This document shows positions 456 through 54,961 of a stretch of 64,000 nt of DNA, piece after piece. Location of the stretch: positions 85,497 to 149,496 of the forward strand of contig JBAZSB010000002.1 of NCBI GenBank assembly GCA_041662625.1. Direction: 5' to 3'. Made by a program: the position numbers and the translations under genes. Source of the DNA: Patescibacteria group bacterium. GTDB taxonomy: Bacteria > Patescibacteriota > Patescibacteriia > Buchananbacterales > UBA6539. The notes beneath the pieces were generated by a model, which was not told the DNA's origin, did not search any database, and was given only the letters and a program-made list of their open reading frames with translations. Numbering within the stretch: position 1 is the stretch's first letter; the number at the start of each line of letters is the position of its first letter.

Positions 456-500
456 CCCCTCGCCCCGTCTCAAACGGGGAGAGGGGTTGGGGGTGAGGGG
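456..500. repeat. GC-rich hairpin element (CCCCTCGCCCC..GGGGAGAGGGG followed by GGGTGAGGGG); member of the CCCCTCACC-motif family
   Basis: Imperfect 11-bp stem around a 9-nt loop in AT-rich intergenic DNA. The terminal GGTGAGGGG is shared with the GIY-YIG element inverted repeats at 4335/4629 and with elements at 32212-32480. Confidence 0.5.
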
Positions 501-2862: not shown

Positions 2863-3666
2863 TTGCTTAAAAATATGCTTAATCAAAAACAATTAACCGA
2901 ATTGGGATTCAGCCCTAAGGAAGCTAATGTTTATTTATCTCTATTAGAGCTAGGCCCTTCAACCGCTACGGAAATTGCCAGAAAGGCCAAAATTAACCGA
3001 ACTACCAGCTATGACATATTAGAGTCTTTAACCAGTGAAGGACTAGTTTATTTAATTGGTGAGACTAAAATCCAAAAATATGCTGCTGAAAATCCCCAAA
3101 AAGTAGTTAATTTTTTAGAAAATCGAATAAAAAAAACTGAGCAGCAATTAACAGCAGCCCACGATATCCTTCCCCAGCTATTTTCGATCTATAACACTAA
3201 AGAAAAACCTCGGGTAAAATTTTTTGAGGGCTTAGAAGGTATGAAAGAAGCTTTTGAAGATACTCTAAATGCTGAAAACGAAATATTAGCCTATGCCGTT
3301 GGTAATGATATGTTTAGTGCCTTTAATGAACAATATTTTCATGATTATTTTCAAAAGCGGGTAGCTAAAGACATATTTGTAAGGGTAATTGCCCCCGACG
3401 ATGAAGGAACAAGAAAGGTTATTGCTAATGATAAAAAAGAATTACGTACCACCCTTTTGGTACCAACTGATAAATTTTATTTTTCCGTCGAAACAAATAT
3501 CTATAATAACAAAATTCTAATTGTTTCCTGGAAAGAAAAATTCGCTGTAATTATTGAAAGTAAAGAAATTTCTGATGCCCAAAGAAAAACATTTGAATTG
3601 GCCTGGCTCGGGGCAAAATCGTTGGATATAAATAAAACCAGATACATACAGGCGCAAAAAATTTAG
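2863..3666 (+). CDS. TrmB-family HTH transcriptional regulator (paralog 2)
   Basis: 267 aa. LGFSPKEANVYLSLLELGPSTATEIARKAKINRTTSYDILESLTSEGLV is a TrmB-type HTH. The architecture and C-terminal domain resemble 537..1286. Confidence 0.7.
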   Translation: MLKNMLNQKQLTELGFSPKEANVYLSLLELGPSTATEIARKAKINRTTSYDILESLTSEGLVYLIGETKIQKYAAENPQKVVNFLENRIKKTEQQLTAAHDILPQLFSIYNTKEKPRVKFFEGLEGMKEAFEDTLNAENEILAYAVGNDMFSAFNEQYFHDYFQKRVAKDIFVRVIAPDDEGTRKVIANDKKELRTTLLVPTDKFYFSVETNIYNNKILIVSWKEKFAVIIESKEISDAQRKTFELAWLGAKSLDINKTRYIQAQKI

Positions 3667-4019: not shown

Positions 4020-4210
4020 CTTACCCTGTGCGCCTTGCCGGGTGCCACAGGGGCCCGTGCCTACCATGGGCACAAACGAGCTATCTGTTCTCTCCTCGAG
4101 AGACCAGAAACGCTCGCCTTCCGCGGGAACCAACGATCTTACCTCCACCTACAAAGCTTGCTTGGCGCAAGAGGGTCACGGGTACGATTTGCGGTTCCCT
4201 TATTTATTTC
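4020..4210. ncRNA. candidate structured RNA (unclassified): ~190-nt GC-rich island in AT-rich intergenic DNA
   Basis: About 58% GC against a ~30% GC flank. Several stable hairpins read directly (CCCTGTG..CACAGGG, GTGCC..GGCAC, GTTCTCTC..GAGAGACC, CTTGC..GCAAG). Only spurious overlapping ORFs with no RBS. Strand and family (SRP, 6S, other) could not be decided by eye. Confidence 0.3.
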
Positions 4211-4334
4211 CGTCAAAAGAATCACTTAAAACCAATAAAATTTACCTACTTTCCCCTACTTTTGACTTTTTTGGTAATAAACTGTATATTATAAAATATT
4301 CTGAATCAGTACCCCTCACTTTTAGGGGCCCTTA

Positions 4335-4629
4335 GCCCCTCACCTGAAAAGTTTTTATGTTTTATGTCTATATTCTAAAAAGTAAAAAAGATGGTAGTAT
4401 CTATGTTGGGTATACCAATGATTTAAAAAGAAGATTTTTAGAACATAATAATTTAAAAAGTAAATCAACAAAAAATAAGGCGCCTTTTGAGCTGATCTAT
4501 TATGAGGCCTATAAGGCAATGGCTGACGCCAAATATCGAGAAAATAACCTCAAAAGATTCGCTAAAGCCTATATTCAACTGAAAAGAAGGATTAAAAATA
4601 GCTTAATTTAAACTTTTCAGGTGAGGGGC
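4335..4629 (+). mobile_element. mini-element carrying a GIY-YIG ORF, bounded by perfect 20-bp terminal inverted repeats, inserted at the 5' end of tRNA-Ala
   Basis: GCCCCTCACCTGAAAAGTTT at 4335-4354 and its exact reverse complement AAACTTTTCAGGTGAGGGGC at 4610-4629. 11-bp direct repeat GGGGCCCTTAG at 4325-4335 and 4625-4635; the second copy is the 5' end of tRNA-Ala. Confidence 0.6.
4357..4611 (+). CDS. GIY-YIG nuclease family protein (small, ~84 aa)
   Basis: YVYILKSKKDGSIYVGYTNDLKRRFLEHN is the GIY-(10-11 aa)-YIG motif with the conserved Arg and Glu. Same size class as the second copy at 31038..31292. Confidence 0.85.
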   Translation: MFYVYILKSKKDGSIYVGYTNDLKRRFLEHNNLKSKSTKNKAPFELIYYEAYKAMADAKYRENNLKRFAKAYIQLKRRIKNSLI

Positions 4630-4702
4630 CCTTAGCTCAGTTGGCTAGAGCGCCTCCATGGCATGGAGGAGGCCAAGGGTTCAAATCCCTTAGGGTCCAC
4701 CA
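4626..4702 (+). tRNA. tRNA-Ala (anticodon GGC)
   Basis: Cloverleaf folded by hand: acceptor GGGCCCT/AGGGTCC with the G3:U70 Ala identity pair, D-arm GCTC/GAGC, anticodon stem CCTCC/GGAGG, loop ATGGCAT, T-arm AAGGG-TTCAAAT-CCCTT, encoded CCA. Confidence 0.85.
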
Positions 4703-4916: not shown

Positions 4917-6113
4917 CTAAAATCTGGAGCTCTCCTTTGATCCGGAAATTCGCTTTGCCAAGCCGCCTAATTGAGTAGTTAGGGTACGAATTTGCGCCAG
5001 AGCATCATCGTGAATATCTGGGTCTTTACCGGCAAAACTGCTGCCAATAGCAGCTTCCTCACTTTGCAGGACCAGAACCAGACTACCAATTGCCGACATC
5101 ACTTCCCGGCGCCGTTCTTCAGCCACCCGAGCGGCGAGAACTTTGGGATCCTCCTGCCTTCTCTTGCCATCTGGGGCAGCATCAGGTTTTTTAGGCCGGG
5201 GATCGAGCTTTTTGAGTCGTTCTAGTAGCTTCCCGAGGTCTTCCAAAGATCTGGTTAGAACCCTGATAATAGTCTCAAAATCAGTGGTGGCATCCGAGGC
5301 TTTCGGAAAAATCGCTTTGAGTGTCACCACTGGAATATCAAGGGCTCGCTGGAGTGATGTTCCAACCCGCTCAACATGGCGGATCAGGCTACGGCGGACA
5401 TCTCTTGGCCGTGCTGGTTTAGCCGCGGCTGCTCCCTGCTGGCCAGCGACAATTGCCTTGACCTTTTCAACCGCCCGGCCAGTAGCCATCAGCATTACAC
5501 TGGTTGCCACCTTAGCTTGGTCAGCTGGAGGCAATTCGGCGATTTCCTTGGCAACACTAACCGGCAATTCACCTGAAATCACCCGCCGCTTAACGGCATC
5601 GGTAAGTTTCAGCAGGGCTAGCCGATCACGCAGCCAGGGTTCTGACTTCTGAAAGGTATCACAGACCTCAGTCCAGATAGCACCAAGGTCGAGCAATTCC
5701 TGGATGTTTCGAGCAGCTTCCAGTGGCGTATGCGGCAGGCGACCCCAATTACTGCCAATTGCCAGCATTTTCCTGCCTTTTCGGTCATTGACATCAATAT
5801 TCACGACCACCGCTTGAAATGGCCTCCCGTTGAGTTTACAGGATTCAAGGCGATGTTGGCCCTTGATTAACCCATAAGGGTGGCTGGAATCATCGGTTGG
5901 GATGACAATACCCGGCTCTTTCTGGCCATTCCGCTGAATGTTGGGAGCCAGATCAGTCTTGATATAGTCCCAGTTCAACCCGTCGCGGGGCTGTTCCAAA
6001 ACGACAATCAGATCGGTCGGAATACTTAGGACTTCCGAAACAACCTCTACTCCTGCTGGCAACCGAAATTTCGTACTGTCTCTCTCTGCTACTGCTGCGA
6101 CTTGTGCATGCAT
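4917..6113 (-). CDS. ParB-like nuclease domain protein (ParB/Srx fold), in a GC-rich island
   Basis: Start set at the Met preceded by AAAGGAG (6113). IVIPTDDSSHPYGLIKGQHRLESCKL is ParB N-terminal-domain-like (GxxxxHR motif). About 52% GC versus ~37% for the host. Confidence 0.6.
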   Translation of the reverse strand: MHAQVAAVAERDSTKFRLPAGVEVVSEVLSIPTDLIVVLEQPRDGLNWDYIKTDLAPNIQRNGQKEPGIVIPTDDSSHPYGLIKGQHRLESCKLNGRPFQAVVVNIDVNDRKGRKMLAIGSNWGRLPHTPLEAARNIQELLDLGAIWTEVCDTFQKSEPWLRDRLALLKLTDAVKRRVISGELPVSVAKEIAELPPADQAKVATSVMLMATGRAVEKVKAIVAGQQGAAAAKPARPRDVRRSLIRHVERVGTSLQRALDIPVVTLKAIFPKASDATTDFETIIRVLTRSLEDLGKLLERLKKLDPRPKKPDAAPDGKRRQEDPKVLAARVAEERRREVMSAIGSLVLVLQSEEAAIGSSFAGKDPDIHDDALAQIRTLTTQLGGLAKRISGSKESSRF

Positions 6114-6328
6114 AGCTAGATCTCCTTTTACACTGGTTTGTTTTCCTCCTCGATTTCCGATCAAGTCTGCCTAAAAATATGAATTCTTCATGATAGCAAA
6201 GAACAAATAAATACTAAAAGCATTTTATCATTTTAATTTCATTCCAACAAACCAATTAAACTAACAAAAAAGAGGGAGCAAGCAACTCGCCGCTACCCTC
6301 GAAAACCTTTGATCTAAAGACCCAAGTG

Positions 6329-6902: not shown

Positions 6903-7706
6903 TTACAAATTTTTCAAAAACGAGGCTGTATCTTTGGGATCAACAGTAATTTTTTTACATAACGGCCAGACTAATTCAAATTGGGATTTAATCAATTCCG
7001 TAAAATCGCGGCTGGTCACGGTGAAACCAAAACTTTCCTTTCTTGAAGAAATAAAAGCAACTTTATCGGCATAAGCCCATAAACCCATATTCCAAGTCAT
7101 GCCTTTGGGCGCTAAACGAATTTCGCGATAGAATTCTTTAGTAATACCTAGGAAAGGATATTGTTTAAATTTCACGGCTTTATCTGAAGGCCAAATAGTT
7201 CGCAAATAAATTTTTTTGCGAATTCTTTTTCTATTATTTTCCGCCAGCCAATCCGCGCCCAGTACCCCAATCATTTCGGAAATCGGCCAAATGACTAAAG
7301 TAGTAATATTTTCATACCACAAAATATCATTAACCGCGCGTCTGACTCCTTCTTGGCCGCTGTAAAATTTGATTTTCGGTTCCAAATAATCAGCTTGGGT
7401 AGAAAGTTTAGGAATAATTTCTTTAAGTTGTTTTTCCTGCTTTTGTAAATTAGAAATTTTATCATTAACTAAACGAGAAATATTTTTAACATCATCAACC
7501 CGGAATAATTTTTTATTTTCCTGATCAATCTCGGTGACTAAGCCTAAGCTGATTAAAATTTTTAAATTATCATAAACCGACGGCCGGGGAATATTGAGAT
7601 TTTCAGCAAGTTGTCTGGCGGAAGAAATGCCAATTTCCAAAAGGCGCAAATAAATTCGCGTCGCGGTTTCGGGGATGTTTAGGTTTTTGAGGATGTCTTG
7701 GAGCAT
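6903..7706 (-). CDS. TrmB-family HTH transcriptional regulator (paralog 3)
   Basis: 267 aa. ATRIYLRLLEIGISSARQLAENLNIPRPSVYDNLKILISLGLV HTH. Same length and layout as the other two paralogs. Confidence 0.65.
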   Translation of the reverse strand: MLQDILKNLNIPETATRIYLRLLEIGISSARQLAENLNIPRPSVYDNLKILISLGLVTEIDQENKKLFRVDDVKNISRLVNDKISNLQKQEKQLKEIIPKLSTQADYLEPKIKFYSGQEGVRRAVNDILWYENITTLVIWPISEMIGVLGADWLAENNRKRIRKKIYLRTIWPSDKAVKFKQYPFLGITKEFYREIRLAPKGMTWNMGLWAYADKVAFISSRKESFGFTVTSRDFTELIKSQFELVWPLCKKITVDPKDTASFLKNL

Positions 7707-7974: not shown

Positions 7975-8047
7975 GAAGCGTTTACCGTGGCAGTAAACCT
8001 AGGGCGTGATAACCAGGTGTGCACCTGAAAAGCTAAGGAGGAGCGTC

Positions 8048-9118
8048 ATGCGAAACAACATAATTACGGTTTTGGTTTCAATGTTAGCAATAACGTCGGC
8101 CTGGGCCGAAGGAAAAACCGAGGCCAGGGACCCGACTAAACGGATCCCAATAATTAAGGTCGGTGACACGGCAACACTGGACTTCTGGGGATTTGGCCAA
8201 GGAGCGTTTGTCGAAGACGCTGAACCTGACGAATTCCAGTGGACCAATCTGAGGTTGTACGGCAACCTGGAGGGGAAGCAACTCGGACTCGGGTTTGTCC
8301 TGAACTTCGCCGACCTGCAAGAGCCAGAAGGTAATTGGCTGCGTGAGCTTTACGGTAAGTTCAAACTGACCGATACCCTGGAAACCCGCGCCGGCCTGAT
8401 CCTGACTTCGGTTGGTAATGGTGAGGCTTTCCCCGGACCGCCCAAAAACGAAACCGTACTTTTCCCCCGAAGCTTACAGTTTGGCCAATATGGCTATGGC
8501 CTTCAGCTTCGCTGGAAAACCGATTTCTGGTCAGTAGTGGCTGACATCACCGGTAATACGGCCTTGCCATTCGATGATCCAAACAAGTTCAAGGATCTCG
8601 AGTTCTCCGGCCGGGTCAAACGGATCTTTCGAAACCACGAGCGCGAACTGGGCTATCTGGGGGGAACCGTTCAATTGACTAAAGCTGTCAACCGATTTGG
8701 TCTCGACGGTCAAGGGCAGCCGACCAAGACGCTGACTCTGCGCGGTGGCGTGTTCTACTCTGACTACGCCAGTGAAAAGCAAAGCAACCAGCTTAGTGGT
8801 TTTGGTCTAGCCGCGTATCGACCAAAGTCTTGGTTCGAAGTCCACACGATGATCGAGGGCACGAAAGATTTCGCCAAGGAGTACCAAGACCTCCAAGAGA
8901 AGAAAGACAAGCAGGGGAATGTCATTCACGATGAGTGGGGGAATATCATTTACGAAGAGGTGACGCGGCGGACATCAGATGCGACCGAAATCAGTTGGAC
9001 CAACGGGGTACGCTTCTTTGGAAAAGATGATCATTGGTCGTTAACGCTAGACTACAAGACTGTGCTGGAGGGACAGCGGGAAGACCAAATCTCGTTACGA
9101 GTGCATATTCCGTTCTGA
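8048..9118 (+). CDS. secreted protein resembling an outer-membrane beta-barrel (signal peptide, C-terminal Phe)
   Basis: Start at the ATG 6 nt after AAGGAGG. N-terminus MRNNIITVLVSMLAITSAWA is a signal peptide. Alternating amphipathic segments, and the protein ends ...ISLRVHIPF with a terminal Phe as in Gram-negative beta-barrels. About 52% GC. Confidence 0.45.
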   Translation: MRNNIITVLVSMLAITSAWAEGKTEARDPTKRIPIIKVGDTATLDFWGFGQGAFVEDAEPDEFQWTNLRLYGNLEGKQLGLGFVLNFADLQEPEGNWLRELYGKFKLTDTLETRAGLILTSVGNGEAFPGPPKNETVLFPRSLQFGQYGYGLQLRWKTDFWSVVADITGNTALPFDDPNKFKDLEFSGRVKRIFRNHERELGYLGGTVQLTKAVNRFGLDGQGQPTKTLTLRGGVFYSDYASEKQSNQLSGFGLAAYRPKSWFEVHTMIEGTKDFAKEYQDLQEKKDKQGNVIHDEWGNIIYEEVTRRTSDATEISWTNGVRFFGKDDHWSLTLDYKTVLEGQREDQISLRVHIPF

Positions 9119-10031: not shown

Positions 10032-10784
10032 ATGACCATAACGGTCGGGGAACAGCAGGTGCTTGACGCTTCTATTTCACCTGAGGTCGTAGTGTTGTAT
10101 CACAATGGTTCACGAGAGCCCTTTGGGATCATCAGGATTGAGCACCCTGAGACTATTCAAGCAGTTGACGGAAAGACACTCCAACATCTGCTTCGTGATA
10201 CCAATACGGATTGGCTCAGACTCCAGAGTGTTTCTCTTAGGCAAATTCGGGCGCGGCTCGGATTCGAGAAGTGCCTGAGAGCAGCTCGGGGTTTAGTGGA
10301 AACCATTATTGACACCACCGGTAGAGAGGGGGAATTCCAGCAAGCAGCCAGGCTGCTTGAGGACTACCTCCACCTTCCCAATTTGCGGGAAAGGTTGGAA
10401 AACATCCTCTGCTCGCCGACGACACCAATTGTGGTGAGTCTCGACGAAGTAATTAAGTCCATTGATCAGGACACAACGCCGATAGTCCATGAGTTACTCG
10501 TTGGAATTGAAGAATGCCGCAGTCAAAGTGGGACCATCAATTTGGCCTGGGGCACGCTTCCAGTACGGATTTTCGGCAGCCGGGAAAAACGGAAGTACTT
10601 GGAAACAGTTCTAACCCGACTCGGCGTTTTTCGCCGGCTGGCTCAAGGTCATGACCTACAAGCTATTTGTGACGGCTTACGCGCAAACAATCCAGAGTTG
10701 GCTGCGTTGCCAATCTTCGAGCAAGTGATGCGAAGCTGGCAGAGAGATCTACCTACGGGAACGACGGCAACGACGGCGCAGTAG
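10032..10784 (+). CDS. hypothetical protein (GC-rich operon, gene 1)
   Basis: RBS AAAGGGAGGAAAAGAGT-ATG. 250 aa, cytoplasmic, no motif recognised. Confidence 0.55.
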   Translation: MTITVGEQQVLDASISPEVVVLYHNGSREPFGIIRIEHPETIQAVDGKTLQHLLRDTNTDWLRLQSVSLRQIRARLGFEKCLRAARGLVETIIDTTGREGEFQQAARLLEDYLHLPNLRERLENILCSPTTPIVVSLDEVIKSIDQDTTPIVHELLVGIEECRSQSGTINLAWGTLPVRIFGSREKRKYLETVLTRLGVFRRLAQGHDLQAICDGLRANNPELAALPIFEQVMRSWQRDLPTGTTATTAQ

Positions 10785-10806
10785 ACAAGCGCCAGAAAGG
10801 AATGGT

Positions 10807-11415
10807 ATGAGAATCAATTGGATGGTTCTGGTAGCAACAGCGGCTTTCGTAATTGTGGAGATGGCGATCTCCGCATTGGGCCCAAAGACTGACTTCCCTT
10901 TGTGGAAACACGGGGGAATCTGGGGCGACCTGCTCCTATTCGCCGTGATCAACGCTGTCGTCTGGAATCACCTGCGCCTGCCCGGTCTCTGGGTAGTCGT
11001 GGTGATCCTGATAATCGCTGACACAGCGGCAATAGGAATGCACAAGATGTGGTTCGCCGGCCAGGAAGGCATGACCAGTGGGATTTGGCCGACTTGGCCG
11101 AATAACGGCTGCTGGGGCGGCATGAGCCCTGCTGGTTTCATGCACGTGGCTTTCATGACAACGCAGATCGCGATTCTGCTGCTGTTCGTGCTTTCACCCG
11201 CGCCACCTTCGGTCGTCTGGACCGCCGCCATCCTGCTGACAGCGTTCTGGCCGATCAGCGTCCTCCAGCCGTGCTGGTACATAACCAGCAAGTGGATTGA
11301 CGCGATGGCCATCACCAACTCAGCGATTATGGTGGTCGGCACCTGGGGAGCCTGCTGGGTCAAATTGGCCCGGCCGGAATGGATTAAGTTTGTAGTGAAG
11401 TTAACCAGAGGATAA
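10807..11415 (+). CDS. hypothetical Trp-rich integral membrane protein (GC-rich operon, gene 2)
   Basis: 202 aa, about 5 TM segments, ~57% GC. Confidence 0.5.
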   Translation: MRINWMVLVATAAFVIVEMAISALGPKTDFPLWKHGGIWGDLLLFAVINAVVWNHLRLPGLWVVVVILIIADTAAIGMHKMWFAGQEGMTSGIWPTWPNNGCWGGMSPAGFMHVAFMTTQIAILLLFVLSPAPPSVVWTAAILLTAFWPISVLQPCWYITSKWIDAMAITNSAIMVVGTWGACWVKLARPEWIKFVVKLTRG

Positions 11416-21012: not shown

Positions 21013-21549
21013 ATGAGTAAAGAGGTAAGCCCCAGAATCGTGATATGGATACTAGCGGCTATCGGGATTGGTTGCGCCGTCACGTTTATTCTCGCCCTGC
21101 GAGCCATTGTCCAACGGCCACCAGAGCCTGCCGTGACCGTGATCATTCCCGCCAACTCGGGCGCCAGCCAAGAAATGCCCCCGAAGCTCTTCTTCCGGGA
21201 AGGCTTTCCGACCCAAGAACCGGCGGTGGTCAAACTCGAGGTGCAGGATTACAAAACGGCCAACGACTCGCCCAAATACCAGGTGTCAATCTATGCTCGG
21301 CTGCGACGGGAAATCAAACCAAACCAGCCACCCCTGACACCAAGTTGTGACGTTGATGCTGATTCCGTGAGGAGTTGCGCGGCGGTCTTGAATAGCCCAA
21401 ATGAAGATGTGCCTGGCATCAAGTACGATGAAGGTTGGGTGTTCCTAGACACCTGCGATATCAACCAGGATTGCCAATGGGACATCCCGGTCCCGTTCGA
21501 CAAACAAATGATCCGGGAAGTTCGGGCCTATCTGGTCCGGCAACCGTAG
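21013..21549 (+). CDS. hypothetical membrane-anchored protein (GC-rich island)
   Basis: RBS GGGGGAGGG. N-terminal TM, four Cys in the C-terminal half. Confidence 0.5.
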   Translation: MSKEVSPRIVIWILAAIGIGCAVTFILALRAIVQRPPEPAVTVIIPANSGASQEMPPKLFFREGFPTQEPAVVKLEVQDYKTANDSPKYQVSIYARLRREIKPNQPPLTPSCDVDADSVRSCAAVLNSPNEDVPGIKYDEGWVFLDTCDINQDCQWDIPVPFDKQMIREVRAYLVRQP

Positions 21550-30923: not shown

Positions 30924-30946
30924 TTAGAAAATTTGATGCCATGATG

Positions 30947-31031
30947 GCGCCTTCGTCTAGTGGTTAGTGCCGATGTAAAATCGGCATCCCGATTCGCCGC
31001 ATCGGCGGCGACATCGGGAGACACCAGGTTT
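30947..31031 (+). pseudogene. partial duplicate of the tRNA-Glu 5' half (nt 1-22, then a 53-nt structured insert, then nt 24-34)
   Basis: GGCGCCTTCGTCTAGTGGTTAG and ACACCAGGTTT are identical to the intact tRNA-Glu at 31301. The insert TGCCGATGTAAAATCGGCATCCCGATTCGCCGCATCGGCGGCGACATCGGGAG folds into two hairpins. Confidence 0.6.
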
Positions 31032-31037
31032 CTATCT

Positions 31038-31292
31038 ATGTCTCACTTTTACATTCTAAAAACAAATAAACAGAGCTATTATATAGGCAGTACAGATAAT
31101 TTAGAAACTAGATTAAAATATCATCAAGGCGGTAGGGTAAAAAGCACTAAAGATAAATTGCCAATTGAACTAGTTTTTAAAGAATATTACAAAACAAGGG
31201 CCGAAGCGCAAAAAAAAGAATACAAGGTTAAGGGTTGGAAAAGTAAAAAAATGATTGAAAGATTAATTAAACTTGGCCCGCATCAAAAATAA
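31038..31292 (+). CDS. GIY-YIG nuclease family protein (small, ~84 aa), copy 2
   Basis: HFYILKTNKQSYYIGSTDNLETRLKYHQ is the GIY-YIG motif. The ORF-track N-extension (from 30960) lies over the pseudo-tRNA and is rejected. Confidence 0.85.
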   Translation: MSHFYILKTNKQSYYIGSTDNLETRLKYHQGGRVKSTKDKLPIELVFKEYYKTRAEAQKKEYKVKGWKSKKMIERLIKLGPHQK

Positions 31293-31300
31293 AATAATAT

Positions 31301-31375
31301 GGCGCCTTCGTCTAGTGGTTAGGACACCAGGTTTTCATCCTGGTAACAGGGGTCCGATTCCCCTAGGCGCTACCA
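31301..31375 (+). tRNA. tRNA-Glu (anticodon TTC)
   Basis: Hand-folded: acceptor GGCGCCT/AGGCGCT, D-loop AGTGGTTA, anticodon stem CCAGG/CCTGG with loop TTTTCAT, T-arm AGGGG-TCCGATT-CCCCT, encoded CCA. Confidence 0.85.
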
Positions 31376-31439: not shown

Positions 31440-32183
31440 ATGAAAAAAATTTATCTGATTATAATCATTTTGCTTATTGCTCTGGGGGTATACCTAAACC
31501 GTTCATATGCTTATATTTATAATGAAATCGGCAGCGCTGATTTGCGTTCGCCCGACAGCCAGCGCACTTATATGATTACTAACACCAACAAAAACCAGGC
31601 TGAACCAATAGTATACGCGGCATTGGGTGACAGCTTGACTGCCGGCGTAGGCACGGACAACTACCAGCAGGCTTACCCGTATTTAGTTGCCACAAAATTG
31701 GCCGAAAGGGGACCGGCAGTGACTTTGAAAGACTTGGCAGTTTCCGGCGCCAATACCAGCGATGTCATCAAAGGCCAGCTAGCCGAAGCTATTGCGAGCA
31801 AGCCAAACATCATTACTTTGCTAATTGGCGTCAATGACATCCACAATAATGTCGGCAAAGCCACTTTTCAAAAAAATTATGAGGAAATCCTGACGCAGCT
31901 GGCCAAAAACACCAGCGCCAAAATTTATGCTATCAGCATTCCTTACATCGGTACCCACAAGCTTTTTCTGTCGCCTTATCAATTATATTTCAACTTCAAA
32001 ACCAAAAAATTCAACGGGGTGATTAAAGAGGTTGCCGCCGCTTATAAAGTCCAATATATAGATATCTATACTCCCACGGTGAACATATTTAAAAAATCAG
32101 GGCCGCACTATTCAGCTGATTTGTTTCATCCTTCAGCTGCCGGCTACAAATTATGGGCGGACATAATCTCCAAATCGCTGTAA
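31440..32183 (+). CDS. SGNH/GDSL-family hydrolase with signal peptide
   Basis: GDSLTAG block and a GVNDI block. Confidence 0.7.
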   Translation: MKKIYLIIIILLIALGVYLNRSYAYIYNEIGSADLRSPDSQRTYMITNTNKNQAEPIVYAALGDSLTAGVGTDNYQQAYPYLVATKLAERGPAVTLKDLAVSGANTSDVIKGQLAEAIASKPNIITLLIGVNDIHNNVGKATFQKNYEEILTQLAKNTSAKIYAISIPYIGTHKLFLSPYQLYFNFKTKKFNGVIKEVAAAYKVQYIDIYTPTVNIFKKSGPHYSADLFHPSAAGYKLWADIISKSL

Positions 32184-32211
32184 AGACGTGGCTGTGCTTT
32201 CAGCGCTGTTC

Positions 32212-32368
32212 TTCCCCCTCACCCACGCCTTGTCATTGCGAGACCCGCGCTTCACTAAGCTAAGGGCGGGTCGAAGCAATCTCTTTGGCTGTGAGATTGC
32301 TTCGTCGCCTTGCCATCATCGCGACACTCCTCGCAATGACAATAGAAAAACGGAGGGAGAGGGGGAGC
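32212..32368. repeat. ~155-bp GC-rich palindromic mini-element (outer CCCCCTCACC / GAGGGAGAGGGGG ends, 13-bp TTGTCATTGCGAG inverted repeat, three internal hairpins)
   Basis: TTGTCATTGCGAG 32230-32242 pairs with CTCGCAATGACAA 32330-32342. Internal stems GACCCGC/GCGGGTC, GAAGCAATCTC/GAGATTGCTTC (11 bp) and GTCGC/GCGAC. Confidence 0.55.
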
Positions 32369-32442
32369 TAAAAATAAGCTTTTGGCAAAACTTAAGATAA
32401 AAGGGAAGTTAAGCAAGACGCTATACTTAAGTTTCCCCTCCC

Positions 32443-32480
32443 CCCTTGTGGGGGAGGGTTAGGGAGAGGGGGAAGCAAAG
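32443..32480. repeat. GC-rich hairpin element (CCCCTCCCCCC-TTGT-GGGGGAGGG-TTAG-GGAGAGGGGG); same family as 456-500
   Basis: Read directly. Its end GGGAGAGGGGGAAGC matches 32352-32367. Confidence 0.5.
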
Positions 32481-32490
32481 AAAACACTCT

Positions 32491-33639
32491 ATGACCCTAT
32501 CAATCACTGACGCAATTCTATCCACCCAGATATTTACCGTAATTTTTTTACTGTTTGTCTTGGCGTCGGTCAAAGCCAGAAAAGACAACCAAATATTTCC
32601 CTTGGCCACAACCCACGAACTCAAAGGCCTGGCGATTTTAATGGTGGTGTTTTCCCACATCGGCTATTTTTTGACAAGCGACCACCAATTTCTGTTTCCG
32701 CTTTCCATTGCCGCGGGCGTGGGCGTCAATTTATTTTTGTTTTTGTCCGGCTACGGCCTGGCTGTCTCTAACCAGCACAAGCCGCAGACCATCGGCCAAT
32801 TCTACGGCCGCCGCTTAATTCGGCTGCTTCTACCCGTCTGGATTGTTTTGACGATCTTTTTTTTGCTGGATTATTTTATTCTGCATCTTGCCTACGGCAG
32901 CCAATATATTGCCCAGTCGTTCCTTGGCTATTTTCCCACCGCCGACCTATACCACGACATTGATTCGCCGCTTTGGTATTTTACCCTGATTTTATTTTAC
33001 TATCTTATTTTCCCGATATTTTACAGCCGCCGGCGGCCCTGGCTTAGCGCGGCAATAATTTATTTGCTGTCTTATTTTATAATTTTGTGGCAGCCGCCGG
33101 CTTTGCAAAATGTCTTAGGCTTATACAAAGTCCATTTTGCCGCTTTCCCTTTGGGCATCGCCTTTGCCTGGCTGCTGTCTAAGCCGGATTGGTTTAAACT
33201 TAGCTGGCTGAAAAAAATGCTGTGGCGTTTTAAAAAGCCATCGCTGGACAAACTGATTGTAAAATCTTTCGGCTATGCCGGCTATTACGCTTTATTTGCC
33301 GTGCTGCTTGCCGTGACCGCTTACACCGCTTACTATTCCAACATCGGCGGCGGCATGTTTAAAGAACAGCTAACCAGCTTAATTACCATGTCAGCGATCG
33401 TACTGCTATTTTTAATCAAGAAATTTGAGTTTAAACTGTTCGCCCTTTTCGGCACATTCTCCTATGAAATTTATCTGCTCCACTGGCCGGCCATGTCCCG
33501 CTACAATATTTTTTTCACCCTTCTGCCGTCCTGGCTGGCAGTCACATTATACCTAGCAATCTTTCTAGCCCTCGGCTGGCTTTTGCACCGCCTGACAGGC
33601 TGGGCGTTGCGTAAAGTGATGCCAAAGGCTCGGGCTTGA
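32491..33639 (+). CDS. acyltransferase family 3 (membrane O-acyltransferase) protein
   Basis: Start at MTLSITD; the ORF-track start at 32446 lies inside the hairpin element. LKGLAILMVVFSHIGYF is typical of the family. Confidence 0.65.
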   Translation: MTLSITDAILSTQIFTVIFLLFVLASVKARKDNQIFPLATTHELKGLAILMVVFSHIGYFLTSDHQFLFPLSIAAGVGVNLFLFLSGYGLAVSNQHKPQTIGQFYGRRLIRLLLPVWIVLTIFFLLDYFILHLAYGSQYIAQSFLGYFPTADLYHDIDSPLWYFTLILFYYLIFPIFYSRRRPWLSAAIIYLLSYFIILWQPPALQNVLGLYKVHFAAFPLGIAFAWLLSKPDWFKLSWLKKMLWRFKKPSLDKLIVKSFGYAGYYALFAVLLAVTAYTAYYSNIGGGMFKEQLTSLITMSAIVLLFLIKKFEFKLFALFGTFSYEIYLLHWPAMSRYNIFFTLLPSWLAVTLYLAIFLALGWLLHRLTGWALRKVMPKARA

Positions 33640-44614: not shown

Positions 44615-45415
44615 TCAGTGGTATTTTTTAAAAGGCCAAAATAATATTTTTGTCGCTAAAAAATGGATGAAAGAAATAATTACAGCATAGCTGAAAACGG
44701 CAATAAAGATACTGAAGTAACTCATGATTTTCAAAATTAATTTTGTCGCATCAAATTGAAGAATAAAGGCAAAGATATCAAAAAATAACAAGCTAAAAAT
44801 AATAAAAAGTAAGCCTTGCCACATTCCTCTTCGGTCTTGCTTGCTCGGGCTCATATGGGTAGCAATACAAAAAGAAGTATATAAAAAAAGCCAGAAATGC
44901 CAGCTGGAAATATTAGCCAGGTTGAACAGCTTGACTAAAATCTGCCAAATTGACTGACAAAAAATAACAAAGGATAATTGGCTAAAAGAAAACTCATTAA
45001 AAATTTCTAGGCCATTAGGCACTAAAAAAATAAGCAAAATAACCAGAATAATTGAACCAAAAATCATTGGCCCTAAGGCAATAAAAAAATTACCAATATT
45101 TTGGTAAAAACTTTTTTCGGAATAAGAATGGTCGACCCAACCCAATTCTCCAGTAGCAAAATCAGGTTGAAATAAGGCCACTCGGTTAATTTTATGAAAA
45201 AAAACTTTAGCAAAAATAATATGGCTTAACTCATGAATTGGCGTTCCCAACCAGCCAGTCCAAAAAATGCCCTTCCAGCCAACACTTTTTTGGTAATTAT
45301 CCAAAGTCCACTTCTGCAGTTTAGTCAGAATAAAACCAAAAACAAAAAAAATACCAAAAATAATGAATAATTGGACAATAACTAACAAAATGATTTGTAA
45401 AATAAATTGCTCCAT
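44615..45415 (-). CDS. integral membrane protein with HExxH motif (putative membrane metalloprotease)
   Basis: GTPIHELSHIIFAKVF in a TM context. Confidence 0.45.
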   Translation of the reverse strand: MEQFILQIILLVIVQLFIIFGIFFVFGFILTKLQKWTLDNYQKSVGWKGIFWTGWLGTPIHELSHIIFAKVFFHKINRVALFQPDFATGELGWVDHSYSEKSFYQNIGNFFIALGPMIFGSIILVILLIFLVPNGLEIFNEFSFSQLSFVIFCQSIWQILVKLFNLANISSWHFWLFLYTSFCIATHMSPSKQDRRGMWQGLLFIIFSLLFFDIFAFILQFDATKLILKIMSYFSIFIAVFSYAVIISFIHFLATKILFWPFKKYH

Positions 45416-45480
45416 CCTGATTTAATTATATATATAGATTGAAAAATTAGCCAATTTGGGTTAGAATATTAATACTATTT

Positions 45481-45513
45481 ATGATAATACTAAGCATTGA
45501 AAGCTCCTGTGAC
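45481..45513 (+). pseudogene. duplicated tsaD 5' end (ATGATAATACTAAGCATTGAAAGCTCCTGTGAC, MIILSIESSCD)
   Basis: The 17-mer GAAAGCTCCTGTGAC is identical to 45693-45707 in the intact tsaD start (ILGIESSCDE). Confidence 0.55.
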
Positions 45514-45629
45514 CCCGCCCCAATTCCGCGAGACACATTAATAAAATTTTTAGGTCAAGTGGGCGCGGAGTCGCCTTACGGCTTACTCTCCCCGATGAAC
45601 AAAGTTTAGGTTATAGAATTGGAGCGGGG
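45513..45629. mobile_element. ~117-bp GC-rich mini-element with 14-bp terminal inverted repeats, inserted between the duplicated tsaD 5' fragments
   Basis: CCCCGCCCCAATTC at 45513-45526 versus GAATTGGAGCGGGG at 45616-45629 (13 of 14). Internal CCGCG..CGCGG hairpins. Confidence 0.45.
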
Positions 45630-45656
45630 CGAGATGAAGTACCAATCAAACTTTTT

Positions 45657-46694
45657 ATGAATAAAGAAAATAATCTCATTATTTTAGGAATAGAAAGCTC
45701 CTGTGACGAAACCGCTGCTGCCTTAGTTCAAAAACGAGGAAGCATTTTTAAAATACTTTCAAGTGTAGTATCTTCCCAAATCGAAATCCATAAAAAATAC
45801 GGCGGCGTAGTACCCGAAGTTGCCGCCAGAAATCACATCCTCAATATTATTCCAGTCATCGATCAGGCTTTAGTTGAAGCCAAAGTTAAGCCCGGCCAAA
45901 TTGATAAAATTGCTGTGACCACTGGGCCGGGACTAATCACTTCACTGCTGATTGGTGTTGAAACCGCCAAAACTTTGGCTTACACCTGGCAAAAGCCAAT
46001 TTGCAGCATTAACCACCTTAAGGCCCACCTTTACGCTAACTGGCTAAGTAACCAGCCAATTAAATTCCCTGCCCTGGCATTGATTGTTTCTGGCGGCCAT
46101 ACAGAATTGATTTTAATGAAAAATGAAAAGAGTCTAAAAAAAATCGGCCAGACTTTAGATGATGCCGCCGGTGAAGCTTTTGATAAAGTGGCTCAATTAC
46201 TAAATATTGGCTATCCGGGCGGACCAATAATTTCTCAGTTGGCAAAAAAGGGAAATACCCAAGCTTTTAACTTTGCCCGGCCTATGATTAACAGTAGCGA
46301 TTTTAACTTCAGCTTTTCCGGCCTGAAAACCTCAGTACTCTATACCATCCAAAAGCTCAGAGTTCAGAGTTCAGAGTTCAGAGCCGCCAACTCCAAGCTC
46401 AAAGCTGACCTCTGTGCTTCATTCCAGCAAGCCGCAGTTGATGTCTTGGTGGCAAAAACTTTCAAAGCGGCCAAATATTATCAAGCCAAAACCGTGATGC
46501 TATCTGGCGGCGTCGCCGCTAACTCGCTTTTGCGTGAAAGCTTAAAGCTCAAAGCCCAAAGCTTAAAGCTAAATTTTTTAATGCCAAACATCAACCTCTG
46601 CACTGACAATGCCGCTATGATTGCGGCAGCCGCCACTTTTGAAAAACCAACCCCTTGGCAGAAACTCAGAGTCGATCCGAATTTAGAGATATAA
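45657..46694 (+). CDS. tsaD: tRNA N6-adenosine threonylcarbamoyltransferase TsaD
   Basis: ILGIESSCDETAAAL at the N-terminus and CTDNAAMIA at the C-terminus. Contains in-frame CAGAGTT x3 and AAAGCT-type repeats (46358-46383, 46540-46580). Confidence 0.85.
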   Translation: MNKENNLIILGIESSCDETAAALVQKRGSIFKILSSVVSSQIEIHKKYGGVVPEVAARNHILNIIPVIDQALVEAKVKPGQIDKIAVTTGPGLITSLLIGVETAKTLAYTWQKPICSINHLKAHLYANWLSNQPIKFPALALIVSGGHTELILMKNEKSLKKIGQTLDDAAGEAFDKVAQLLNIGYPGGPIISQLAKKGNTQAFNFARPMINSSDFNFSFSGLKTSVLYTIQKLRVQSSEFRAANSKLKADLCASFQQAAVDVLVAKTFKAAKYYQAKTVMLSGGVAANSLLRESLKLKAQSLKLNFLMPNINLCTDNAAMIAAAATFEKPTPWQKLRVDPNLEI

Positions 46695-53569: not shown

Positions 53570-53719
53570 CCTGACTAACTCGTGAGGTTAAAATTCAAGC
53601 AGTTGAGAGTCCAGATAAAACCTCACCCCTTAATTAATAGATTAAGGTGGGGCAAAACTAATATTATTATAACCGTTTTAGATGATATAATCAACCAAAT
53701 TATAATTTTTTCGGCTGTT

Positions 53720-54961
53720 TTAAGATTTTTCCGTTTGGCTTAATTCAGCCGGAGATTCTAATTCGGTTTTTGGCGGGGCCAAAGCTTCTGATTTTAGTTC
53801 AGCCGAATCAACTTTTTTGGCCGGTTCTGATTTTTCCTTCAAGGCTTTCAGGCTTAAACCTAACCGATGATTAGTCGGCTCAATGGACAACACTTTGAAA
53901 TCCAAGGTATCTCCGGGCTTAGCGATCTCGCTGGTATCACTAATCGGTTTATCAGACAATTCAGAAATATGAGCTAAACCGTGAATATCCGGATCGAGCT
54001 CAACAAAAAGACCAAAAGGATTAGCTTTTAAAACCTTACCTTTCACGACCTGACCGACTTTATACTTCTCAGCCACATTCTTCCAAGGATCTTCCTTGAG
54101 TTTTTTCATGGAAAGAAAAATCTTAGAACCTTCAACATTGATAATTTCTGCTTTGATTTTATCACCAACCTTAACTAAGTCAGAAGGATTATCAATTCGC
54201 TGCCAAGCTAATTCCGAAATATGGACTAAACCTTCAAGTTTATCAGCGCCAAACTCGACAAAAACACCAAAGTCAGTCACGGCTGTAACTTTGCCACTAA
54301 CGGCATCGCCCACTTTATAACTGGCAATAACATCTTTTTGTTTTTCTTCCCAACCGGCCTTTTCCGATACAATTAATTTTTCTTCAGCTTCGTCCACATC
54401 AATCACTTTGACTTCAAAATCATGGCCGATGTAGCTTCTTAGTCGTTCCAAAATTCGATTTTTATCGCCACCCGGAACCCGCGGATAGTGTTCAGGCATC
54501 AATTGCGAAACCGGTAAAAAGCCAGGAATCCGGCCAACCCTAACCATTAAACCACCTTTATTCGCATCAGTAATTGTTGCTTTGACAATTGATTCTTTTT
54601 GTCTTAAGTCGGTTAAATTGTCCCAGGCCTTTTGGTGACCGGCAAAACGAAACGAAAGTTCCATCTCTCCGTTTTCGTTCTCCAGCTCAATTACCGTTGC
54701 TTCAACGTCATCACCTATTTTTAGACCCGAGTACTCATTTGATTCGTCATAAAATTCTCGGCCCCTCACCACACCGGTGGTAAAACCATCAATGTCTAAA
54801 CGAATTTCGGACCGAGAAATATCAATTATTTTGCCTTTGACCAAGTCACCAACTTTCGGAATCTTAATAAAATCCCCCTCAGCAAGGATTTTCTTAAACT
54901 GAGAGGATTGGTCTTTAGTCTTAATATCAGGCTCATCAAGTTTAGTGTCTTTTGCAGTCAT
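53720..54961 (-). CDS. rpsA: 30S ribosomal protein S1-like (4 S1 domains)
   Basis: Four consecutive S1 (OB) repeats (G.V..V..FG.FV....GL.H.SE pattern). Confidence 0.75.
   Translation of the reverse strand: MTAKDTKLDEPDIKTKDQSSQFKKILAEGDFIKIPKVGDLVKGKIIDISRSEIRLDIDGFTTGVVRGREFYDESNEYSGLKIGDDVEATVIELENENGEMELSFRFAGHQKAWDNLTDLRQKESIVKATITDANKGGLMVRVGRIPGFLPVSQLMPEHYPRVPGGDKNRILERLRSYIGHDFEVKVIDVDEAEEKLIVSEKAGWEEKQKDVIASYKVGDAVSGKVTAVTDFGVFVEFGADKLEGLVHISELAWQRIDNPSDLVKVGDKIKAEIINVEGSKIFLSMKKLKEDPWKNVAEKYKVGQVVKGKVLKANPFGLFVELDPDIHGLAHISELSDKPISDTSEIAKPGDTLDFKVLSIEPTNHRLGLSLKALKEKSEPAKKVDSAELKSEALAPPKTELESPAELSQTEKS

Follow-up and report, generated by a model that had tools for sequence, protein, structure and literature searches.

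The spacer between a GDSL-lipase gene and an acyltransferase_3 gene in the 64-kb stretch of Patescibacteria DNA analyzed here (hereafter, the window) is probably a mosaic of short, non-autonomous, structure-forming DNA repeats that resembles the bacterial interspersed mosaic elements (BIMEs) and was inserted where the two genes formerly overlapped. This mosaic appears to combine a REPIN-like dimer of TGTC/CGTC-tagged hairpins (hereafter, module 1) with motifs of the BoxC/PIT/TM type (hereafter, module 2 or BoxC/TM), of which one is intact and one is split around the dimer; a further copy of module 2 is located at positions 456-500. By their sequence and architecture, the repeats are assigned to the CGTC-tagged repetitive extragenic palindrome (REP)/Ssn-type and BoxC families, and the inverted repeats that bracket a GIY-YIG nuclease gene at 4335-4629 are not part of this hairpin family. 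For this locus, the result is a clarification: the preliminary description of the stretch joined all these sequences in a single family of at least five loci and found no feature class that would explain them, whereas two catalogued repeat families, REP-type (PMC3733652) and BoxC-type (PMC4666352), and a separate cassette account for the loci that remain after closer inspection.

The case for an insertion comes from relatives of the locus. A search with the GDSL protein identified six metagenome relatives (L241-L246; 47-59% amino acid identity) in which about 20 nt are shared between the GDSL and acyltransferase genes (..ATAATTTATGAnnATATCAATnAnTAA); the spacer is absent in 6/6 of these loci, with nothing between the two overlapping genes, and thus represents an insertion. 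No module of either kind was detected in the approximately 43 kb of sequence from the six relatives. The insert, with a GC content of 51% compared to 40% for the window, provides the present stop codon of the GDSL gene (TAA, 32181-83), and TCT is found at both of its junctions. This empty-site comparison shows that a mosaic of this kind can separate genes that overlapped and give one of them a new end.

Downstream of the GDSL gene, the C-rich arm, the 13-bp inverted repeat, the G-rich arm, a 66-nt AT-rich stretch and the BoxC/TM unit follow in this order, with the module-1 dimer beginning 48 nt past the GDSL stop codon (Table 1). A 155-bp element with a 13-bp inverted repeat, outer arms, three internal hairpins and a cloverleaf-like fold had already been noticed here, and all these features are indeed present, except that the hairpins enclosed by the inverted repeat comprise 7, 12 and 5 bp, the middle one having been given as 11 bp. 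When folded as single-stranded DNA (ssDNA), the segment 32226-32346 forms a four-way 'cloverleaf' junction at -37.8 kcal/mol (z = -8.3, with 0/200 shuffles equal), and the fold of the 295-nt region yields z = -6.4 and -7.0, one value per strand. The C-rich and G-rich arms bracket the module-1 dimer in a manner that resembles a BoxC-type hairpin split by the dimer. Furthermore, an imperfect terminal repeat of 19 nt (32206-24 and 32462-80, 84% complementary), of the kind used to recognize miniature inverted-repeat transposable elements, was identified. No second copy of the composite insert was found, either in the window or among about 2.8 Mb of compared loci.

The general layout of a module-1 half-unit consists of a (C/T)GTC tag, ATTGC, GA, a hairpin closed by G…C, GAA, GCAAT and a C(C/T)N tail; the ssDNA fold of the left half-unit in the insert reproduces this architecture (-14.4 kcal/mol, z = -4.8). 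In the insert, the tails of the two halves face each other across a 9-nt spacer (32284-92), and the minus-strand TGTC is located at 32338-41. The pattern GTCATTGCGAG-N(0-30)-GAAGCAATC matches at least 120 IMG/VR viral contigs, in which the units occur singly, in tandem or as inverted dimers as in the window, with up to 6 copies per viral contig. Among 189 copies, the tag is TGTC in 100 and CGTC in 81, and the tail, which is CTC in the window, is CCA(G/T) in 46 and CTC(N) in about 77 of the 189 relatives. Between the conserved flanks, 101 distinct inner segments were detected, ranging from the GCGNAGC mini-hairpin to 8-bp stems, with a mean terminal stem of 2.48 bp vs 0.39 bp in shuffles (0/500 reach this value) and 15 different stems; thus, the inner hairpin covaries. 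GCGNAGC, the commonest inner hairpin, is a classic DNA mini-hairpin. The head of module 1 follows a pyrimidine-rich or CCCC tract in 18% of the viral copies, and 6% of random windows give the same result. BLAST searches detected the module-1 dimer in plasmids of Novosphingobium (40+ places in one replicon), Methylobacterium, Methylosinus, Legionella and Aulosira and in Helicobacter canis phages, and plasmid pNL2 of Novosphingobium aromaticivorans carries this very dimer. A full-text search of the literature for the core strings of module 1 retrieved only unrelated primers.

The two shorter units of about 45 bp that had been described as relatives of the large element, at 456-500 and in the second part of the spacer (32435-72), are both present and can be assigned to the intrastrand-triplex motif known as BoxC, PIT or 'TM_ECO', which has been reported from more than 260 genomes (Holder et al. 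2015, NAR 43:10126, PMC4666352). In E. coli, this motif is always intergenic and has neither promoter nor terminator activity; no mobility gene is found nearby, and the motif is associated with local rearrangement (PMC4666352). Both copies in the window consist of a pyrimidine arm, a purine arm and a mirror purine arm separated by short loops, as in CCCTCGCCCC..GGGGAGAGGG-TTA-GGGTGAGGGG. The copy at 456-500 has the single C-arm mismatch typical of the 'A mm' type, with loops of 9 and 2 nt, and is almost identical to TM_ECO no. 13, CCCTCGCCCCGTTTGGGGAGAGGGTTAGGGTGAGGGG, whereas the copy in the spacer, whose loops comprise 4 and 3 nt and which is separated from the acyltransferase start codon by 18 nt, compares closely with no. 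21 (..GGGGAGAGGGTTAGGGAGAGGGG) (Table 1 in PMC4666352). The likeness to BoxC/PIT/TM_ECO (Bachellier et al.; Hoyne et al. 2000; Holder et al. 2015) extends to the three blocks, the TTA or NNG linker, the nearly letter-for-letter agreement of the sequences, the strictly intergenic location and the occasional occurrence as inverted pairs. The differences are that the host is a 40%-GC Patescibacteria genome, that one copy is seemingly split, with a dimer of hairpin repeats nested between its arms, and that the loop of the copy at 456-500 is 9 nt, whereas the ITxF search for BoxC/TM used loops of 1-6 nt.

Module 2, in the form of the pattern GGAGAGGGG-N(2-4)-GGGGTGAGG, likewise matches at least 120 viral contigs and is also found in plasmids of cyanobacteria, Azospirillum, Cupriavidus, Vitreoscilla, Thiothrix, Deinococcus, Prevotella and E. 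coli. The related viral contigs L097 and L068 differ by the presence vs absence of a BoxC/TM unit. Nearest-neighbor folding of the BoxC/TM copies recovers only the Watson-Crick hairpin. The G-rich half of each BoxC/TM copy in the window is a canonical G-quadruplex motif (476-500 and 32450-32472, on the sense strand and 18-37 nt upstream of start codons), and no others were detected in the 64 kb. The string GGRGWGRGGGG, with at most one mismatch, occurs 14 times in the window vs 3.7 expected; by analogy with the characterized motifs, the copies are predicted to be able to form an intrastrand triplex or a G-quadruplex.

With respect to genomic context, the two modules behave alike. Module-1 copies are 61% intergenic in DNA that is 88% coding, an approximately 5-fold enrichment, and their orientation relative to the flanking genes is nearly even (41 on the same strand, 36 on the opposite strand). 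Both BoxC/TM copies in the window and 56% of the 170 viral copies are intergenic, against the same 88% coding background and with no strand bias. The preference of both modules for intergenic DNA and their lack of strand bias suggest a feature that acts at the level of DNA and not of RNA; the hairpins show structural constraint and behave as intergenic DNA elements. The preliminary description had taken the sequences for a mobile or recombinogenic small-element family, and this view holds insofar as the insert is inserted repeat DNA, the site is empty in six relatives and each module recurs in at least 120 viral contigs as well as in plasmids from many phyla, but these repeats do not form one family. 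Thus, hairpin repeats tied to Ssn nucleases (see below) and BoxC extend, nearly unchanged, to genomes of the candidate phyla radiation and to hundreds of phage-like contigs, and the near identity of the sequences over such a range argues for horizontal spread or very strong structural constraint.

Table 1. Coordinates of the features discussed in the text (window positions)
Feature	Coordinates	Strand	Details
GDSL-lipase gene	31440-32183		Pfam Lipase_GDSL_2, 1e-33
Lineage-specific insertion, 321 bp	32170-32490		between the GDSL and acyltransferase_3 genes
C-rich arm CCCCCTCACCC	32214-24	+	pairs, with 1 mismatch, with part of the G-rich arm (32355-65)
13-bp perfect inverted repeat TTGTCATTGCGAG/CTCGCAATGACAA	32230-42 and 32330-42		encloses three hairpins
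Module 1, left half-unit	32231-32283	+	TGTC 32231-34; ATTGC 32235-39, pairs with GCAAT 32276-80; GA 32240-41; inner hairpin 32242-72; GAA 32273-75; CTC 32281-83
Module 1, right half-unit, inverted	32293-32341	-	same tag, outer stem and tail; different inner hairpin (GTCGC..GCGAC)
G-rich arm GGAGGGAGAGGGGG	32352-65	+	13 nt of 32354-66 recur exactly at 32461-73
Complete BoxC/PIT/TM motif	32435-72	+	C-arm CCCCTCCCCCC 32435-45; loop TTGT; G-arm GGGGGAGGG 32450-58; linker TTA; mirror G-arm GGGAGAGGGGG 32462-72
Acyltransferase_3 gene	32491-33639		3' neighbor of the spacer
Second BoxC/TM motif	456-500	+	CCCCTCGCCCC, 9-nt loop, GGGGAGAGGGG, TT, GGGGGTGAGGGG; 37 nt upstream of the TrmB-like gene 537-1286
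GIY-YIG cassette 1	4312-4629	+	extra CCCCTCAC 4312-19; copy of tRNA-Ala nt 1-11 GGGCCCTTAGC 4326-36; left repeat 4335-54; open reading frame 4357-4611; right repeat 4610-29
GIY-YIG cassette 2	30946-31375	+	pseudo-copy of tRNA-Glu nt 1-22 30946-67; 50-nt GC-rich double hairpin 30968-31017; tRNA-Glu nt 23-34 31018-29; open reading frame 31038-31292; intact tRNA-Glu 31301-75

The assignment of module 1 follows from comparison with two overlapping groups of repeats. The first group consists of the CGTC-tagged REPs (Di Nocera, De Gregorio & Rocco 2013, BMC Genomics 14:522, PMC3733652). As defined there, these REPs have a CGTC or TGTC tag (CCTC being allowed), a stem that opens with A-T and then T-A, and a CCA-like tail; they are present in many copies per genome, mainly as inverted dimers in intergenic DNA near the ends of genes, in several phyla and with no dedicated transposase, and the four published families have stems of 8-9 bp and loops of 4-5 nt. 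The study also includes the Neisseria dRS3 and the Rickettsia RPE-4/RPE-6 in the class, lists a homodimer family, CGTC-2, for N. aromaticivorans and notes REP dimers nested in palindromes. Compared to this description, module 1 is alike in the unpaired TGTC tag, the A-T/T-A opening of the ATTGC/GCAAT stem, the short C-rich tail (CCA or CTC), the inverted dimer arrangement and the intergenic location, as well as in its spread over phyla without an adjoining transposase.

The second group includes the hairpins, designated NTS/dRS3 or 'Ssn-related motif' (SRM), which flank the genes of Ssn, small single-domain GIY-YIG proteins (cd10448; Chenal et al. 2025, Nat Commun 16:2388, PMC11893778). The Ssn nucleases bind the flanking hairpins and cut them only as ssDNA, just 5' of the stem, with SsnA active on ssDNA but not on RNA of the same sequence, and this activity modulates Neisseria transformation; the paper mentions neither tRNA nor Patescibacteria nor phage contigs (PMC11893778). 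Among the loci compared here, tagged hairpins flank the Ssn homologues of Azospirillum, Neisseria, Sinorhizobium and N. aromaticivorans and are located near 36 of the 50 Ssn homologues encoded in viral contigs, on both sides in 22 cases. The bulged architecture, TGTC-AT..GA-hairpin-GA..AT-CTC, flanks the homologues of Spirosoma and Planktothrix, and sister bulged units (ATTCT.., ATCCC..) flank those of Planktothrix, Spirosoma and locus L337. Locus L347 (IMGVR_UViG_2881247448_000001, 533-1200) encodes an Ssn homologue (701-996, cd10448-like) with true module-1 dimers on both sides. Given this flanking of Ssn genes and the similarity to the tagged hairpins, module 1 can be considered an Ssn-type repeat; judging from these motifs, it is a bulged subfamily of the CGTC-REP or 'Ssn-related motif' class. 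The similarity consists of the tag, hairpin and C layout along with the flanked Ssn gene in L347, and recognition of SRMs at the ssDNA level fits the absence of strand bias and the DNA-type mini-hairpins of module 1. In the Azospirillum lipoferum plasmid AZO_p3 (L329, 255118-256133), the Ssn homologue, with CGTC hairpin dimers on both sides, is located between sufB and sufC, which looks like another insertion between two adjacent genes.

The mosaic also shares features with the REPIN/RAYT system and with BIMEs (Bertels & Rainey 2011; Nunvar 2010), namely paired inverted hairpins that form a larger foldable unit, intergenic mosaics of small repeats and, as in the Ssn class, a trans-acting single-copy nuclease gene flanked by the same repeats. 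In REPIN/RAYT, the repeats carry a GTAG tag and are linked to an HUH tyrosine transposase, whereas Ssn-type repeats are linked to a GIY-YIG nuclease; no RAYT gene was noticed in the window, although no search aimed at one was made. GC-rich palindromic clusters of AT-rich genomes, such as the GC clusters of yeast mitochondria and the Rickettsia palindromic elements, are foldable mini-inserts that land at or inside genes. No sequence relationship of the insert to either of these was found, and six-frame translations of the insert did not match the NCBIfam models of the Rickettsia palindromic elements or any other NCBIfam or Pfam model.

By analogy with the characterized repeats, replication, repair or DNA uptake would expose ssDNA in which the hairpins of the TGTC dimer are extruded. 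There, the hairpins could be nicked by a GIY-YIG nuclease of the Ssn type acting in trans, and the present copy may have arrived via an ssDNA hairpin intermediate, in which case the dimer would have spread as other Ssn-type repeats are thought to spread. The present effects of the insert are likely to be passive, that is, separation of translationally coupled genes and re-termination of the GDSL gene; the stable segment before the acyltransferase gene, prone to form a cruciform, triplex or G-quadruplex, might also be a local rearrangement hotspot. The preliminary description suggested the repeats as substrates of GIY-YIG nucleases; for the TGTC/CGTC hairpin class such activity is published (PMC11893778) and L347 shows the flanking, but no link between BoxC and GIY-YIG was found and nothing shows that the GIY-YIG enzymes encoded in the window act on these repeats.

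Several observations weigh against the mosaic reading and the proposed assignment of module 1. The module-1 stem is 5 bp and continues through a GA/GAA internal loop into a further hairpin that varies in sequence and length (31 nt at most in the window copies), unlike the 8-9-bp stem and 4-5-nt loop given for the CGTC-REP families, and the copy number is very low here, with one module-1 dimer in 64 kb. Identity of module 1 with 'CGTC-2' is suggested by the shared species only, N. aromaticivorans, in the family list of that study. The SRM search pattern, HGTCWYN(0-2)YYVSBRHN(0-5)WNVSBRGN(0-2)RNCYNB, did not match the window, the module-1 consensus or either of the two window halves of module 1, although the NTS and Azospirillum controls did match. 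The window copy of module 1 appears to be an orphan: no cd10448-type gene was recognized in the window, and the nearest GIY-YIG gene, 940 nt away, is not flanked by the repeat. The GIY-YIG genes of the window are UPF0213-like and shorter than Ssn, and are associated with terminal inverted repeats, not with self-folding hairpins. The 534 kb of DNA surrounding 80 GIY-YIG cassettes contain only 4 module-1 heads and 2 TM copies, so the modules are not high-copy in this lineage. With regard to the insertion itself, the junctions share TCT but lack a clean target-site duplication, the six relatives used for comparison are distant, at about 50% amino acid identity, and the insert may have accumulated in several steps. 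Finally, two contigs from other samples (L001, L002) are 100% identical to the window across the element, show no polymorphism and are therefore uninformative in this respect. Given that the bulged subfamily is missed by the SRM pattern and yet flanks Ssn genes, the current counts of Ssn-linked repeats are underestimates.

The alternative that survives best, although it is unlikely, holds that all these sequences comprise a single mobile family with CCCCTCACC/GGTGAGGGG ends, in which the GIY-YIG cassette is autonomous whereas the BoxC-like hairpins and the 155-bp element are miniatures mobilized by the GIY-YIG nucleases of the window. The cassettes have to be described before this possibility can be weighed. 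The open reading frame (ORF) of cassette 1 encodes an 84-aa protein (Pfam GIY-YIG, 8e-17) and is enclosed in a perfect inverted repeat of 20 bp beginning with GCCCCTCACC; the right repeat overlaps the first 4 nt of tRNA-Ala(GGC) at 4626-4702. Homologues of the cassette-1 protein at 70-90% identity are found only in Patescibacteria, which marks the window as DNA of the candidate phyla radiation. In a survey of 70 homologous loci from 80 genomes (L248-L327), the ORF is tightly bracketed in 61/70 by exact inverted repeats (8 nt or longer), almost all of which begin with CCCC-N-CAC. Directly 5' of a tRNA gene are 23 of the 70 loci, and 20 of these duplicate the first 8-12 nt of that tRNA on the far side; other cassettes are located at the 5' end of RNase P RNA (L274, L285, L307) or inside 16S rRNA (L279). 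Miniatures without an ORF were also identified at the 5' ends of tRNA-Ala genes, namely a 71-nt element (L282, 1349-1431) and a 20-nt hairpin, CCCTCTGCTCGCGAGCAGAG, in two loci (L258, ~4264-4295; L263, ~4091-4122); they share with the full cassettes both their ends and the 11-nt tRNA duplication.

The second GIY-YIG protein of the window, also 84 aa and with a single Pfam GIY-YIG domain as in cassette 1, is 41% identical to the cassette-1 protein. The latter is 34-38% identical to Ssn homologues and does not contain their GFTxRY segment, and the nearest structures in PDB are those of UPF0213 proteins (1ZG2, 1YWL). No CGTC/TGTC hairpins adjoin either gene, the second one being flanked by tRNA-Glu copies, so the NTS-ssnA-NTS layout is not found in the window. 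The GC-rich double hairpin of cassette 2 is a further small palindromic insert that interrupts the tRNA-Glu pseudo-copy. A search for an empty site of cassette 1 through the neighboring ParB-like gene retrieved no homologue of that gene but itself, and two extra contigs break at or before the tRNA. No description of tRNA-associated GIY-YIG cassettes was found in the literature searched, and these cassettes, associated with the 5' ends of tRNA genes, may represent a new kind of small mobile element.

In favor of a single family, the GIY-YIG repeats begin with GCCCCTCACC, exact CCCC-N-CAC inverted repeats surround the ORF in most of the Patescibacteria homologues, and there are miniatures that keep these ends and the duplication of the tRNA 5' end. 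Furthermore, the third arm of TM, GGGTGAGGGG, resembles the right repeat of the cassette, and in L323 one TM is located about 50 nt from a GIY-YIG cassette. The shared string by which the preliminary description linked the elements is in excess within the 64-kb window (CCCCTCACC occurs 5 times vs 0.21 expected, and 0/100 shuffles reach 5), and the GIY-YIG repeats do start with a string of this type, but this does not place them in the same family: the cassette repeats vary as CCCC-N-CAC (CCCCCACAC, CCCCGCAC, CCCCCACCAC), whereas BoxC keeps CCCTC(T/G)CCCC. E. coli, cyanobacteria and more than 260 further genomes contain abundant BoxC, never beside mobility genes (PMC4666352). The TM-bearing viral loci (0.96 Mb) contained no GIY-YIG homologue, and TM is scarce near the nucleases, with 2 loose TM-like matches in 126 kb around Ssn homologues and 2 TM copies around the 80 cassettes. 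Neither the TM copies of the window nor the 321-bp insert show a duplication of the tRNA type. The 1.07 Mb of module-1 loci include only one GIY-YIG homologue, with its own, different hairpins. Judging from these comparisons, CCCCTCACC belongs to BoxC/TM and, separately, to the cassette repeats, with no support for linking the families.

Accordingly, the loci fall into three distinct families, namely the TGTC hairpin dimer, BoxC/TM and the GIY-YIG cassette repeats. Two loci drop out altogether: the copy at 54762 is inside the gene for an S1 protein and is probably a chance occurrence, and the region 45513-45629, which had been listed among the related inverted repeats, has a fold z of only -1.1 and no module in common with the others. 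The latter region contains a 14-nt inverted repeat, CCCCGCCCCAATTC/GAATTGGAGCGGGG, that spans about 90 nt upstream of tsaD and has no match in Rfam. A further hairpin (53620-53660) looks like an ordinary terminator. Modules 1 and 2 were also considered as one element, and this was rejected given their weak co-occurrence: they share a locus in 10/120 and 5/118 cases, and are closer to each other than random positions mainly because both are intergenic. In two phage-like contigs (L005, 5561-5650; L019, 1913-2000), a module-1 half-unit is followed directly by BoxC/TM just upstream of a ribosome-binding site, as in the window.

A stronger version of the link to the nucleases holds that the 84-aa UPF0213-like GIY-YIG genes are autonomous, nuclease-only cassettes with CCCC-N-CAC repeats that are directed to the 5' ends of genes for tRNA, RNase P RNA and rRNA, with 10-35 nt of the RNA gene duplicated, and that the BoxC- and TGTC-type hairpins are their non-autonomous substrates. 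This combination appears unlikely; if it were true, BoxC would gain its first candidate mobilizing enzyme, none having been known for 30 years.

It is quite improbable that the hairpins are instead host regulatory signals that evolved in place, as terminators, attenuators or mRNA-stabilizing 3' hairpins of the GDSL gene or as a leader of the acyltransferase gene. The position of the element would suit such a role, with module 1 48 nt past the GDSL stop and TM 18 nt before the next start, and a weak terminator-like hairpin is predicted at 32194-32206. REP elements are known to stabilize upstream mRNA in E. coli. However, none of the strong hairpins of the spacer is followed by a T-run, promoter and terminator prediction on the insert yielded one weak match each, within shuffle expectation, and there is no strand bias relative to the neighboring genes. 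Recurrence of the same 11-mer and 9-mer across phyla and phages cannot be explained by in-place evolution, the relatives do without any spacer between their overlapping genes, and PIT/TM was inactive as a promoter or terminator in E. coli (PMC4666352).

That the cloverleaf 32226-32346 is a structured non-coding RNA gene, tRNA-like or a viroid-like element acting as RNA, is highly improbable, since the very stable fold on both strands (z -6.4 to -8.3) and the compensatory variation in the inner hairpin are set against a near-perfect palindrome, in which both strands therefore fold alike, half-units that occur singly, in tandem and in either orientation to genes, a commonest inner hairpin, GCGNAGC, of the DNA mini-hairpin type, SsnA cleavage of ssDNA but not of RNA of the same sequence (PMC11893778), and the lack of any tRNA call at the cloverleaf. 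Membership of the insert in a known RNA family was rejected because no Rfam match was found: at the gathering thresholds Rfam identified nothing in the window beyond four tRNAs, and at E<=10 only noise in 32150-32520 and 45400-45700.

Three genes for TrmB-like regulators are located within 8 kb (537-1286, 2863-3666 and 6903-7706); one of these is directly 3' of the BoxC/TM copy at 456-500, and one precedes GIY-YIG cassette 1, taken to start at 4326, by about 660 nt. The window, with its overall GC content of 40%, also includes several patches of 52-55% GC (4917-6164, 8006-9118, 10032-11415 and 21013-21549). The first of these encodes a ParB-N/HTH_ParB-like protein for which no homologue but itself was detected at E <= 1e-30, and the other ORFs of these patches have no Pfam match; the ORFs of the high-GC patches may be foreign or orphan genes.

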